64,000 nucleotides of DNA from a virus (IMGVR_UViG_3300021962_000025:119759-183758); one strand, 5' to 3'. Positions 33,452 through 38,437 are shown, numbered from the stretch's first letter. The notes: generated by a model not told the origin, from the sequence alone. Made by a program: numbers and translations.

Positions 33452-34144
33452 ATGGAATCTCTTTTAAAAATTTTAAAAAAATTAGACTTACGAACAATAA
33501 TCATTGTTGGTCTTGTGATTTTGTTGCTTTTAAGAAATTGTGGGGGTTCTAACGGAGATAAAGAAATCGTTAAAGTTGACGGTAAGAAATACGAATTAGT
33601 AAAGCATACTGTTGATACCGTCTTCGTCGAGAAAAAAGTTATTGTACCGACTTACGTACCTAAGTATGTTACAAAAGTAGTGACTGAAACTGTCCAAGTA
33701 CCTATAGACGTTGATACTCTTAGTATACTTAAAGACTACTTTGCGACTTATGAGGTTAAAGACACCTTGAATCTAACATACGACTTCCCGTCAAATGTGA
33801 TCGATTCCTTGGGACAGAAACCATCACCCAATTTAGGGTATGGACTTCTAACGGATAAAATTTCCCAAAATCAAATTTTAAGTAGAGACATTACGTGGAA
33901 TTTTAAGATACCCACGGTCTACAATACCACGATTGTTAAGGAATTACCAAAATTAGAATTCTATTACGGTTTTAATTTAGGAATGAATAGTCAGGACCTC
34001 TTTAATAATGCGAGTGGTGGTATTATAATGAAAAGTAAGACTGAGAAGTTATATCAATTGAATTTAGGGGTACAGAACGCCCCAAATGGAGTGGCACCTT
34101 ATGTAGGTGGAGGTTTGTATTGGAAAATTAAACTAAAGAAATAA
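33452..34144 (+). CDS. membrane-anchored, possibly lysis-associated protein (DUF6808/spanin-like)
   Basis: N-terminal TM/lipobox-like LLLLRNC; C-terminal amphipathic beta strands ending YVGGGLYWKIKLKK. Confidence 0.45.
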   Translation: MESLLKILKKLDLRTIIIVGLVILLLLRNCGGSNGDKEIVKVDGKKYELVKHTVDTVFVEKKVIVPTYVPKYVTKVVTETVQVPIDVDTLSILKDYFATYEVKDTLNLTYDFPSNVIDSLGQKPSPNLGYGLLTDKISQNQILSRDITWNFKIPTVYNTTIVKELPKLEFYYGFNLGMNSQDLFNNASGGIIMKSKTEKLYQLNLGVQNAPNGVAPYVGGGLYWKIKLKK

Positions 34145-34587
34145 TGAATAGCTACATTTTGTTTATTTACGGAATGTTCGACGACATTGAAGAAATCGAA
34201 TATTACTGTAATGAAGTTCTTCTTACTAACCCCGTAATCAACGGGTTAAAATTCATTGTGGAAAATACCAAGAACCTAATAATCGTATTAGACTCTGACC
34301 TTCCCCAAGACAAACTCACTCAAGAATTACACAAAGACCTACTTGATCAGAATGTGAAGTTCTATTTTATGTTCAGGAGAGACCAAGTAGTGTCGGCACA
34401 TCTACCAGAACAAGTGAAAAAATTTATATTCGAACCTGTTAAGGACTCGTTTATACAAATTACATATAACAGGGTTCAAAAATCTGAGTCCTTAGACCTT
34501 GACGACCTTCTTGAGAAAATTAAGAAGGACGGTATTGATAGTTTAACATCTGAAGAAAAAAAATTTTTAGATGATTATGAGTATTAA
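34144..34587 (+). CDS. hypothetical protein with C-terminal DUF6576-like motif
   Basis: LDDLLEKIKKDGIDSLTSEEKKFLD. Confidence 0.55.
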   Translation: MNSYILFIYGMFDDIEEIEYYCNEVLLTNPVINGLKFIVENTKNLIIVLDSDLPQDKLTQELHKDLLDQNVKFYFMFRRDQVVSAHLPEQVKKFIFEPVKDSFIQITYNRVQKSESLDLDDLLEKIKKDGIDSLTSEEKKFLDDYEY

Positions 34588-34640
34588 AAAAAATATTTTA
34601 TATTAGTCTTATCGTTCGTTCCACCATAAAAAGTCATCCT

Positions 34641-35447
34641 ATGCATCAAAAACTTAACACGTCCTTCCTTAACACTGAGGAAATCGTCTACTACTTAAAA
34701 GACATTAAAAGAATACCAATCACATCTAATGAGAGACTTAAGGAGATCATCAAAGGTCTTAAGTCTCCATCTATTAGCGAGTCTGATAGAAACTCATTAC
34801 TAAATGAGTTGGTGGTCGGTAATTTAAGATTTGTAATTAGTGTTGCGAAACAATATCAAAACCAAGGATTGGATCTACCTGACCTTATTTCAGAAGGTAA
34901 CATTGGTTTGATGAGAGCCGCCCAAGAATTCGACCCCACAAAAAAGGTTAGGTTTATTTCTTACGCGGTTTGGTGGATAAAACAAAGCATCATGGCATCC
35001 CTGAATGACAATGCCAGAACGATACGAATCCCATCTAATATTATCCAAGACTACCAAAAGGAAAAGAAGAAACCCTTAAAGGAAAATGAGTTAGAATTTA
35101 GTGGAAAGGCTTCACATTTAATCCCATATAGTGTATCTTTAAGTGAACAAATAAATGACGAGGGAGACCAACTGATTGATATTGTGATTAATAAAGATTC
35201 AGTAAGTCCCGATTCTTTTATTGATAGTGAAGAGGACATCAAAAAACAAGTACGTAAGGCTCTCTCCATCTTAGATGATAAAGAGAGGGAGATAGTCGAA
35301 AAATATTTTGGTTTAAATGGTGTCCAATGCAATCTTGAAGACTTAGGTGAGGAGTTTGGTTGTACCAAAGAAAGAATCCGACAAGTTAAAGAGAAGGCAA
35401 TGAAGAAGTTAAGAAATGAGAGTTTTACTCTCCTAAAGTATTTATAA
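34641..35447 (+). CDS. sigma70-family factor resembling the Bacteroidota primary sigma (regions 1.2-4, no region 1.1)
   Basis: NLRFVISVAKQYQNQGLDLPDLISEGNIGL...FISYAVWWIKQ; region-4 HTH LEDLGEEFGCTKERIRQ; preceded by ATGA-N19-TATATTAG at 34577-34607. Confidence 0.93.
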   Translation: MHQKLNTSFLNTEEIVYYLKDIKRIPITSNERLKEIIKGLKSPSISESDRNSLLNELVVGNLRFVISVAKQYQNQGLDLPDLISEGNIGLMRAAQEFDPTKKVRFISYAVWWIKQSIMASLNDNARTIRIPSNIIQDYQKEKKKPLKENELEFSGKASHLIPYSVSLSEQINDEGDQLIDIVINKDSVSPDSFIDSEEDIKKQVRKALSILDDKEREIVEKYFGLNGVQCNLEDLGEEFGCTKERIRQVKEKAMKKLRNESFTLLKYL

Positions 35448-35466
35448 TAAAGTAATTGATATAGTT

Positions 35467-35757
35467 ATGAAAAATTTTTTAGAAAAATATTTTGTAGTGA
35501 TTGTGTTTATTGTCTTGATTCTAACATTCTTTAAAGGATGTGGGGACGGTAGAGAGTTATCAAAGATTAGACAAGAAATACAAGACATAAAAGAAAATAC
35601 CTACTCAAAAGAACAACTTGATTTAAGACTTCAAATAGAGGGTTTAAAGAGTGAACACAGGATGATCCAAGCAACGGATAGAAAAATGTTCGACTTGAAT
35701 AGACAAACCCAAATCGAGAAGGAGTTGGAGGTATTAGAAGGTCAACTCAAGAATTAA
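35467..35757 (+). CDS. TM/lipoprotein-like coiled-coil protein (spanin-like), 96 aa
   Basis: N-terminal hydrophobic helix ending FFKGC, then a coiled coil. Confidence 0.5.
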   Translation: MKNFLEKYFVVIVFIVLILTFFKGCGDGRELSKIRQEIQDIKENTYSKEQLDLRLQIEGLKSEHRMIQATDRKMFDLNRQTQIEKELEVLEGQLKN

Positions 35758-37107
35758 ATGGGTAAATGGTTTAGTAGGAATTTTAGGTCCATAATATACA
35801 TTGCGTTTCTTGTACCAATCATAACAGTCGCAATCGTATCCATTTCTCACGTTACAGTGTGGTATGGTATCTCGAACCCATTGTCTTGGGCGGTATACCT
35901 ATCGATAGGTATTGAAATTGCGGCTCTCTCAGCACTTGCAGCAATATCCGCACAAATGGGATCTAAAGTTTACGTTCCATTTGGTATTGTTACCCTCATA
36001 CAGTTTGTGGGTAACATATTTTTTGCGTTCGAGTTTATCAAGATAGATTCGGTACAATTCCTATCGTGGGTTGAACTCACAGGACCAATCTTAGAGTATA
36101 CAGGTATTGAACAGGGTGACCTACAATCACACAGAAGATTCTTGGCAATCTTCGCGGGTGGGATGTTACCACTTATATCCTTATCGTTCCTTCACATGTT
36201 GGTTAAGTTCAATGAGGAGAACACTATTAAATCTAAAGAGAATAAAGAAGATGAAACTCCAAAGGAGGAACCAATTCAAGCTTCAGACTTAGTTGCTGAA
36301 GTTTCTCGTTTTAGACCTAGTGAAGAAGACTTACAAAACTTGGAGGACTTACTTAATAAGTTCAAACCCGAGGAAGAAAAAAAAAGACCCACTAAAGAAG
36401 AACAAAGAGAGATCCTAACTCAAATGATGAGAGAGTCTGAGGAAATGGGACTCTATGATGAACCGTTTGATAATCCATTGATTAAAGAGGAGACACCAGA
36501 ACCACCATCGTGGTTAAATGAGGTGCCAGAACCAACCGAAGAAGATTATAGAGATTGGGATGTTACCTTGACAGATGGTTTAGATCAAGATGTGACGTGG
36601 GATGAAGACCATGCATTGGATATGGTAATGAATGATATGGTATCTGATTTATCTGAAGAAGAGGTCCGAAGTCTTATCGACGAAACGGAGACAGAACCAT
36701 CCCTAACATCAGAAGAGATTAGAAAAATTGAAGTAGTACTGGATGAACTACCAACACCGAGAAATAATTTTGACGTTAATGTTGTGGTATCCGAATTACC
36801 TGATGAGGTAGTAGATGAAATTATTGAATCAGAGGAATTTGAAGTAGAGGATGATTATGAAATCGTTATACCTAAGAAAGTTCCTAACAAATATGAACAA
36901 ATAGAGGAGTACCTTAAATACACGAGAGGATACGACGATATAGAAGAGAATATAGGTGACGCACAATTACCTGATAAAATAGAAAGTGCCGAGTTGGATT
37001 TAGATAGTGGAAAGATAATTTTACCAACACCACAACCAACACCTAACTTTAATTTTAGAACCCCTCTACCACTACAGGATCAAGAAGACCCTGAAAAAAA
37101 AAATTAG
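35758..37107 (+). CDS. multi-pass membrane protein with a long acidic tail, 449 aa
   Basis: About four N-terminal TM helices and an E/D/P-rich C-terminus; ends in an A10 tract just before TAG. Confidence 0.75.
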   Translation: MGKWFSRNFRSIIYIAFLVPIITVAIVSISHVTVWYGISNPLSWAVYLSIGIEIAALSALAAISAQMGSKVYVPFGIVTLIQFVGNIFFAFEFIKIDSVQFLSWVELTGPILEYTGIEQGDLQSHRRFLAIFAGGMLPLISLSFLHMLVKFNEENTIKSKENKEDETPKEEPIQASDLVAEVSRFRPSEEDLQNLEDLLNKFKPEEEKKRPTKEEQREILTQMMRESEEMGLYDEPFDNPLIKEETPEPPSWLNEVPEPTEEDYRDWDVTLTDGLDQDVTWDEDHALDMVMNDMVSDLSEEEVRSLIDETETEPSLTSEEIRKIEVVLDELPTPRNNFDVNVVVSELPDEVVDEIIESEEFEVEDDYEIVIPKKVPNKYEQIEEYLKYTRGYDDIEENIGDAQLPDKIESAELDLDSGKIILPTPQPTPNFNFRTPLPLQDQEDPEKKN

Positions 37108-37382
37108 TAGAGGAAACACCTACAGAAACCCCAATCCCAACATCAACCTCGGAACCTACTAATACTCCGACCGAAACTGTTTCACCCACACCCACGGTGA
37201 CACCTACATCAACAGTTTTACCAACACCAACACCATCACCAACAGAAACTCCATATGTTGATGATTTATACTTAGAAAGTGGGGCGGATCAAATTCCGGT
37301 ACCACAATCACCATACTTAAAATTGGGGTCTAAAGTAATTGTGAGAAATGTTGGAAATACGAGACGTAGAAACAATAGATAA
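37095..37382 (+). CDS. -1 frame continuation of 35758..37107 (frameshift extension; KKKLVEETPTETP...RRRNNR)
   Basis: Frame opens exactly at the A10 tract (TGA at 37092-37094), lacks an ATG, and encodes a PT-rich linker like other genes here. Confidence 0.6.
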   Translation, partial: KKKLVEETPTETPIPTSTSEPTNTPTETVSPTPTVTPTSTVLPTPTPSPTETPYVDDLYLESGADQIPVPQSPYLKLGSKVIVRNVGNTRRRNNR

Positions 37383-37950
37383 AAATTCTTTAAATATTAA
37401 TAGAAGAAAATCTAAGAAAAAACAGATACTTCTCTACGATACTAAAAGACGTATTGATGATTTTGTTAATAAATTAAAATATCGACAAAATGGTCAATAT
37501 GAAGATATTCCACACTTTATCATAAGTAAGTTGGGACATGTTTATAGGGTTATGGACCCCCAATACTCATCTAATACGTTTGGTCAACCCAACATCGACA
37601 AAAAACAAATAAAAATCGCAGTAGAAAATCTCGGTTGGTTAAATAAAAATACCATTACCGGATACTACACTAATTGGGTGGGAGACCCGTATAGGTCGGA
37701 ACCTTATGTTAGGAGTTGGAGGGATAAATTCTATTGGGATAGGTATCCCGAGACACAGATGGAGTCCATTGTACAGTTATGTATAAAGTTATGTGATGAG
37801 TTTAACATTAAGACTAGAGTTGTGCCATCTCATGGATTTATAGAAAATGCGGATAAATTCGAGGGAATACTATGTAAATCCAACTTTTCAAATATTTATA
37901 CAGATATAAACCCTTCGTTTAATTTTAAAATATTTTTAGAAAATGAATAA
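37348..37950 (+). CDS. N-acetylmuramoyl-L-alanine amidase-like protein (Amidase_2), Zn ligands apparently altered
   Basis: PHFII...G.VY, IAVENLGWL, YPETQMESI...L; LLYDT replaces the usual HHT. Confidence 0.6.
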   Translation: MLEIRDVETIDKNSLNINRRKSKKKQILLYDTKRRIDDFVNKLKYRQNGQYEDIPHFIISKLGHVYRVMDPQYSSNTFGQPNIDKKQIKIAVENLGWLNKNTITGYYTNWVGDPYRSEPYVRSWRDKFYWDRYPETQMESIVQLCIKLCDEFNIKTRVVPSHGFIENADKFEGILCKSNFSNIYTDINPSFNFKIFLENE

Positions 37951-38437
37951 AACATACATGAACTACGATAATACAAAGAAGATGTTAAACACATTGAGAA
38001 ACCTCAATGAGTCACATTTTCCAAAGAAAACTCTTTCCGAACAAGAAGAGGAGAAAAAATTAAATGATTCGGTAATAATTGTGGATGGTGTTGAGGTGAG
38101 AATGATTGCATCCACCGACGAAGATTTACAATTAGATGATCAACAAAAAAAGATCATATCAGACGTTATTTCTAATTTTGGTACTCAGGTATCTGATTTG
38201 GGAGATCTACGTCCAGGATTCACCATACAGTCAAATCAAATACGTTTAGATGGTACATTACCTGACGTAGAATTGGATTTTGTAATTATTGCGGGTTCTA
38301 ACAAAGGAGTGTACTTAAACACAGCAATGTTAAAGGTGACCTATGATTTGTTAGAATCGATTGAAAAACTATTAAAATTTGAAGATGTGTTTGCGGATTC
38401 TGTAAACGAATTAATTGTACAAAGAAGAATAGATTAA
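37943..38437 (+). CDS. hypothetical protein, possible internal head protein
   Basis: ORF; LNE/LSE motifs near the N-terminus. Confidence 0.55.
   Translation: MNKTYMNYDNTKKMLNTLRNLNESHFPKKTLSEQEEEKKLNDSVIIVDGVEVRMIASTDEDLQLDDQQKKIISDVISNFGTQVSDLGDLRPGFTIQSNQIRLDGTLPDVELDFVIIAGSNKGVYLNTAMLKVTYDLLESIEKLLKFEDVFADSVNELIVQRRID

Follow-up and report, generated by a model that had tools for sequence, protein, structure and literature searches.

The window, by which we mean the whole stretch of 64,000 nucleotides analyzed here, forms the final 64 kb of a viral IMG/VR record of 183.8 kb (37.5% G+C), whose completeness is estimated at 59%. An open reading frame at 35758-37107 on the plus strand encodes a membrane protein of 449 aa and has CCT GAA AAA AAA AAT TAG as its 3' end. 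As reported in an earlier note on this DNA, the gene end contains a run of ten A's at 37094-37103, which is the longest homopolymer of the 64-kb window. The -1 frame opens at a TGA just before the run and lacks ATG codons, also as reported; it contains, however, not 93 but 95 sense codons (37095-37379, KKK plus 92 others), followed by a TAA at 37380-37382. The translation agrees with the Pro/Thr linker and basic tail described in the note as running up to an amidase-like gene. The 3' end of this extension overlaps that gene by 35 nt, corresponding to the first 11 codons of the latter. A single added A would join the 0 frame to the extension and give an isoform of 541 aa. The features are as follows.

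35758..37107, plus strand: membrane-protein gene in the 0 frame, 449 aa, encoding the short isoform (from the ORF list)
37075..37093, plus strand: hairpin CAGGATC-aagaa-GACCCTG, ending directly before the run's first A; proposed as a stimulator of slippage
37092..37094, plus strand: TGA closing the -1 frame just before the run, making the extension unreachable from upstream in its own frame
37094..37103, plus strand: A10, the putative slippage run, with A9-A11 at the same place across 69 distinct contexts
37095..37382, plus strand: -1-frame extension, with KKK followed by a Pro/Thr-rich linker, a conserved motif resembling YVDDLY and the basic tail at the C-terminus (..GSKVIVRNVGNTRRRNNR), ending in TAA
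37105..37107, plus strand: 0-frame TAG, one codon past A10, ending the short isoform
37348..37950, plus strand: Amidase_2-like gene in the 0 frame of the membrane gene (Pfam PF01510, E 1.3e-7)

The region at 34144-38437 encodes, in order, a DUF6576 protein, a sigma-70-family factor (34641-35447, just upstream of the membrane gene), a 96-aa protein with a transmembrane segment plus a coiled coil, the membrane protein, the Amidase_2-like protein, a 164-aa protein and a 79-aa protein. This gene order is unchanged in all close relatives and in the loci where the extension is fused to the membrane protein. A scan of the plus strand between the membrane gene and the next gene found neither promoters nor terminators. 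A blastn search with the region gave no matches to cultured phages.

The N-terminal part of the membrane protein (residues 1-160) has four predicted transmembrane helices and an amphipathic helix in a low-confidence AF2 model (mean pLDDT 53). Its first 150-160 residues are nearly invariant in the relatives. The rest of the 449-aa protein is long, acidic and mostly disordered. Searches of Pfam, PHROGs and the ESM Atlas gave no informative family, the clusters found being phage-only and lacking a function. Residues ~265-298 (window 36550-36650) carry an acidic motif (WDEDHALDMVMNDMV-like), which recurs with 64-88% identity in otherwise unrelated phage contigs (L012-L018). Upon a tblastn search, this motif, 33 residues long, was also found in a hypothetical protein of Flavobacterium phage vB_FspM_immuto; the search gave in addition a weak match to an unannotated metagenomic phage.

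The similarity of the downstream neighbor to Amidase_2 is weak (32 bits, PF01510, E 1.3e-7). In the family alignment, which is the basis of the zinc-ligand comparison, this protein has LLYDT at the position of the His-containing ILCHTS of a distant relative (L104), so that an Asp stands in place of the first zinc-ligand His. At the position expected for the second one, the residue varies (H/N/Q/S). Searches of the PDB with the single sequence and with a profile found no sequence match. The alignment suggests that the protein may be a non-catalytic peptidoglycan-binding protein. The region had previously been labeled a lysis region. This label is doubtful, and assignment to a lysis cassette is unsafe, because the neighbor lacks the usual first zinc-ligand His and its second His is not conserved. 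The 449-aa membrane protein, in turn, matches no holin family in Pfam or PHROG.

About 100 related loci were found by scanning viral and metagenome contigs; they stem from marine, estuarine and freshwater samples. These were reduced, after removal of duplicates, to 69 distinct sequence contexts, 64 of them complete, which represent far fewer independent clades. The proteins of the relatives are 43-86% identical. A long A-run lies at the end of the gene in all 69 contexts, as A9 in seven, A10 in 48 and A11 in 14, and is never shorter than nine. The 0-frame stop is located 0-7 nt past the run in every context. The frame relation is likewise identical throughout, so that a -1 shift corresponds to one added A whatever the length of the run. 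The stop codon closing the -1 frame overlaps the start of the run in 42 of the 69 contexts and is at most 24 nt away in the others. Past the run, the -1 frame remains open for 70-149 codons in the complete loci, and the +1 frame is closed after 5-41 codons. Nucleotide conservation in the flanks comprises the run and one or two adjoining bases, and nothing more. Database searches with the membrane protein gave 2,897 homologs at an E-value of at most 1e-5. Among the best 120 of these, 116 stop at the run, with termini such as ..KKN or ..KKK, and so retain the run and the stop instead of a continuous reading frame; the other four are in-frame fusions with the tail. Distant relatives (L009-L011 and L104-L109), which are shorter, have neither the run nor the extension.

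A run of ten A's is by itself unremarkable in this A-rich genome. Under a first-order Markov model, the 184-kb record should contain about 3.3 runs of at least ten A's and about 8.6 of at least nine, compared with one and seven observed, respectively. The significance of the run is thus due to its conservation in the relatives only, and not to its being improbable by chance. A second A9 lies in frame inside the membrane gene (36377-36385, ..EEEKKRP..); a slip there would lead to an end in the +1 frame at 36418. This internal run is not conserved, as 64 of the 69 contexts have no run of eight or more at that place, showing that long A-runs are not merely tolerated in this lysine-rich gene.

The extension comprises a spacer that varies in both length and composition (rich in Pro/Thr in the marine clades, acidic in the freshwater ones), the YVDDLY-like motif and the basic tail. 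The conserved tail has the pattern (R/K)(N/D)V.N.RRR.. and occurs in 63 of the 69 contexts; five others are cut by contig ends and one, L079, has no tail, which makes 63 of the 64 complete contexts. In L079 (3450-3680) the run is A11, and 9 nt separate the end of the -1 frame from the amidase-like gene, itself in the -1 frame here. It is the sole relative in which an A11 run is combined with a tail-less -1 frame. A match of the extension to phrog_15511 falls in the Pro/Thr linker and was therefore treated as compositional.

The coding character of the extension was assessed over its last 60 codons, leaving out the overlap with the next gene. The synonymous share among single-nucleotide codon differences is 0.56 in the -1 frame, as against 0.19 and 0.085 in the other two frames. 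The -1 frame also varies in length among the relatives, and does so in-frame. In the first 12-20 codons past the run, the synonymous/non-synonymous test shows the 0 frame to be non-coding, while the -1 and +1 frames are not separable from one another. A conserved start codon was not found in the 63 complete extensions, of which 25 have no ATG at all, and the position of the first ATG, GTG or TTG ranges widely, from codon 0 to codon 109. The GTG at 37197, which the earlier note had considered as a possible independent start, is thus not a conserved initiator, and the recoding reading holds. Furthermore, the long protein appears to be real, because four natural in-frame fusions exist. These comparisons support translation of the extension as part of the membrane protein. 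There is, in our judgment, little doubt that the run represents a selected recoding site which would yield two isoforms. The comparative evidence likewise supports the sizes of about 449 and 541 aa suggested previously, and the placement of the site outside the tail-chaperone setting.

The only other conserved element lies on the 5' side of the run. The window hairpin at 37075-37093 has a folding energy of -4.5 kcal/mol alone and of -5.6 kcal/mol (z -3.3) when folded within 34 nt of context. Folding the flanks without an anchor (45 nt on the 5' side, 60 nt on the 3' side) gave weak z-scores only, and it was a test anchored on the run that brought out the hairpin. A hairpin of -3 kcal/mol or better, ending 0-2 nt before the run, is found in 58 of the 69 contexts (mean -5.2 kcal/mol), compared with 3% for controls 30 nt further upstream; shuffled sequences average -0.5 kcal/mol. 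The other 11 contexts have no stable hairpin. The signal is present at offsets 0-3 and nearly absent at offsets 4-32 upstream. The stems have 33 different sequences, with 4-6 pair types per stem rank. RNAalifold, applied to 29 anchored sequences, gave no single-register consensus hairpin, because the stem and loop lengths and the register differ between clades. The support for the hairpin is thus per-sequence folding compared with controls, and not column covariation.

Downstream of the run, the GUAG..CUAC hairpin pointed out earlier does exist in the window (-3.7 kcal/mol). It is not conserved, however, as the same anchored test showed no enrichment of downstream structure (mean -1.1 kcal/mol, compared with -1.6 kcal/mol for controls and -0.9 kcal/mol for shuffles), and the likely stimulator sits upstream, at 37075-37093. 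No Shine-Dalgarno (SD)-like element at a fixed distance was found in the family contexts either, the tetramers being scattered and their spacing differing across clades. The sequence CAGGAT was considered as an SD-like stimulator and rejected, as its spacing is not fixed across clades; its AGGA forms part of the 5' arm of the hairpin.

The earlier note had left the slip at the run as either ribosomal or transcriptional. A slip at the run is upheld by the present results, and the evidence favors the RNA polymerase over the ribosome. The minimum run of nine equals the length of the RNA:DNA hybrid, the change needed is always one added base, and a hairpin abuts the run while ribosomal stimulators are absent; all of these fit polymerase slippage better than ribosomal frameshifting. 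Runs of seven or eight occur in none of the 69 contexts, although a heptamer would suffice for the ribosome. Homopolymers of at least 8 are the usual motif for transcriptional realignment (PMC3711429), and slippage is efficient on nine A's or T's (PMC5009743). RNA polymerase mainly adds A's, producing 10-15 A's from an A11 template with about 20% of the long form (PMC4256274). Stimulation of polymerase slippage by a 5'-adjacent nascent stem-loop is described for the Roseiflexus IS630 element (PMC5009743). The phage site has three features of transcriptional realignment, namely a run of at least 8-9 at the junction, a conserved relation of run and frame, and a coding trans-frame part. The slip is thus probably mainly transcriptional, and we regard a programmed recoding site of the transcriptional-slippage type as a reasonably likely description of the locus as a whole.

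The transcription itself is probably carried out by the host RNA polymerase, because a sigma-70-family gene lies just upstream and a phage RNA polymerase was not found in the record, which is 59% complete and in which the single-subunit positive control gave no signal. We infer the RNA-level slip, its frequency, the role of the hairpin and the downstream coupling from the comparison of the relatives. Copying of the A10 run would create an RNA:DNA hybrid of 9-10 bp consisting purely of rA:dT. The nascent hairpin at 37075-37093 would form at the upstream edge of this hybrid, thus reproducing the layout of an intrinsic terminator in which A's have taken the place of the U's. The RNA could then realign by one position, giving a share of transcripts with A11. 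On transcripts with A10, translation would stop at the TAG at 37105 and yield the membrane protein of 449 aa. Those with A11 would be read through (..PEKKKLVEE..) into the linker and the basic tail, giving the 541-aa form. Slipped transcripts may also alter translation of the Amidase_2-like gene, since the extension ends 35 nt inside it.

The alternative that survives best is -1 frameshifting or sliding of the ribosome on the lysine-encoding A stretch of a homogeneous A10 mRNA, which we consider unlikely. It predicts the same product as slippage. The heptamer A_AAA_AAA is in the correct phase in 69/69 contexts, which is unavoidable with any run of at least nine, and the 0-frame stop 0-7 nt past the run could pause ribosomes. 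Sliding of E. coli ribosomes on long lysine-encoding A stretches is reported (PMC4363877), and some translational contribution is thus possible. However, a bare heptamer or A_AAA_AAG is found in no relative, the shortest run being nine. An in-phase X_XXY_YYZ is the one property of -1 ribosomal sites that the family has, since the contexts show neither a conserved 3' structure nor an SD-like element at fixed spacing, and the sole conserved element is the hairpin directly 5' of the run. Such a 5' hairpin would be unwound inside the ribosome during decoding of the run. To our knowledge, 5' structures are generally not stimulators of -1 frameshifting.

The length of the run at the DNA level was examined in sequencing runs compared as assembled contigs, in which minor A11 fractions are invisible. 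Three DNA assemblies bridge the run, and all have A10 without an indel. X1 may be the source sample itself, X6 is an independent sample from a lagoon in which the sequence is identical, and X9 is a strain from an estuary that differs by 11 substitutions. Two of the three are independent. Together with the dozens of independent assemblies of the relatives, they make a strong argument against an assembly artefact, which had been listed among the alternatives. The sole metatranscriptome contig of this place (run X20, 171 nt, 36933-37103) ends exactly on the last A. No RNA contig in X20 continues past 37103, whereas the DNA contigs of three runs pass through. The end of the contig fits the behavior of a de Bruijn graph at a run of heterogeneous length, and is a weak hint of such heterogeneity, as it is a single observation from a run of low depth (6 of 30 bins covered) in which DNA carry-over is possible.

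The DNA of three of the four fusions (L110-L112) is at hand and shows two routes to in-frame joining. L110 has A11 (L110:2828-2838) and a continuous ORF of 551 aa. Its sequence is 99.0% identical over 4.3 kb to that of L023, which has A10 (L023:2448-2457), and the run is the sole indel between them. The A11 of L110 is either a real DNA-level length variant with a permanent fusion or an assembly slip. L111 and L112 have an intact A10 with one extra C after the run (L111:2918-2928, L112:2858-2868). The run persists in all three fused loci, and both of their other frames stop within 4-26 codons. Slippage in L111 and L112 would yield truncated forms, which is the reverse of the usual arrangement.

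The pair L110 and L023 is what could be expected of DNA phase variation, another alternative raised previously, in which replication slippage would toggle the gene between A10 (short form) and A11 (long form). This explanation is very improbable, given that L110 is the only one of about 70 distinct contexts that is in frame by the length of the run, that lineages with A9, A10 and A11 all have the same out-of-frame relation, that all three assemblies of this phage have A10, and that L110 itself could be an assembly slip. DNA-level switching does not appear to be the main mode, as only this one context of about 70 is in frame by run length. A last alternative is the absence of any recoding, the arrangement being due to an assembly error, to gene decay or to a small ORF with a start of its own (e.g. 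GTG 37197). In its favor, homopolymers are error-prone in sequencing and a GTG is present. It is scarcely credible, however, and already contradicted by the evidence: independent Illumina assemblies show the same arrangement by the dozen, coding constraint acts on the -1 frame, whose changes in length are in-frame, no start is conserved (25/63 extensions having no ATG) and natural fusions exist.

Transcriptional slippage, the preferred reading, has several known counterparts. Transcriptional frameshifting occurs in the type VI secretion (T6SS) genes tssM1 of Citrobacter rodentium and tssM of Yersinia pseudotuberculosis (Gueguen et al. 2014, PMC4256274). As in the phage family, an inner-membrane protein gene is interrupted near about 11 A's, and no ribosomal stimulators are nearby; added A's give a truncated and a full-length product (~20% long). 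No SD or structure is found near tssM1 of C. rodentium, and both forms of TssM are needed (PMC4256274). The tssM genes differ in belonging to a bacterial secretion system and not to a phage, in having no described adjoining hairpin, and in the position of the stop, which is 28 nt past the run compared with 0-7 nt in the phage family. Moreover, tssM slippage was shown experimentally, whereas the phage site is known from comparative evidence. The Roseiflexus IS630 element (Penno et al. 2015, as reviewed in PMC5009743) resembles the phage site in having a terminator-like nascent hairpin immediately 5' of the motif. Its motif, however, is the heteropolymeric T5C5 and one base is lost, while the phage family has a homopolymer of 9-11 nt and needs one base to be added, so the phage site does not belong to this heteropolymeric, one-base-deletion type.

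In the spa13/spa32 genes of Shigella, a C-terminal extension added by slippage overlaps the start of the next gene, as in the phage family, and affects the expression of that gene (PMC5009743). These genes are part of a type III secretion operon, whereas the downstream coupling in the phage family is put forward by analogy. The dnaX gene of Thermus thermophilus (A9) and two-ORF dnaX genes with A10 (PMC3711429) also give two products from a run of 9-10 A's. The fused loci L110-L112 resemble the Thermus gene in that the long form is in frame and each of the other two frames is soon closed by a stop. Most members of the phage family differ from dnaX in that the long form, and not the short one, needs the slip. 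The G/GT proteins of phage tails, the classical chaperone pair, are comparable in being two nested products with a common N-terminus and a set ratio. Their synthesis is ribosomal and uses a heptamer, in contrast to the run of 9-11 nt, the 5' hairpin and the unrelated membrane protein of the present site.

The extension and the Amidase_2-like gene overlap by 29-35 nt in 57 of 60 contexts, and by 32 or 35 nt in 53 of the 60. This overlap is nearly constant despite a linker length that varies from 120 to 406 nt. The Amidase_2-like gene is in the 0 frame of the membrane gene in 59/60 contexts. The constancy of the overlap suggests a link between slippage and downstream expression, and expression of the Amidase_2-like gene might thus be coupled to slippage. 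A more far-reaching proposal, which is tentative and rather doubtful, is that the hairpin and the A-run form a terminator-like module that is tuned to make the polymerase stutter and not stop, that it sets the ratio of the two isoforms, and that, by way of the 29-35 nt overlap, it also sets the translation of a degenerate, probably non-catalytic Amidase_2-like partner.

A search of the literature found no description of the site or of the gene family, which is new to a known class of mechanism. What is new is the combination of a 5' hairpin with an A-run of 9-11 nt in a widespread phage membrane-protein family, present in uncultured large phages of marine and freshwater origin. The site clearly exemplifies recoding in a phage gene other than that of the tail chaperone. 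Gene callers cut the gene at the run, and the extension is either overlooked or called only in part, leaving the C-terminal module unannotated. The 33 natural versions of the hairpin in front of A9-A11 constitute a comparative series on the promotion of homopolymer slippage by nascent hairpins. If the proposed module does set both the isoform ratio and the translation of the partner, a single event at the level of transcription would determine in what proportions two proteins enter an envelope complex, and would do so across a large group of aquatic phages that are uncultured.
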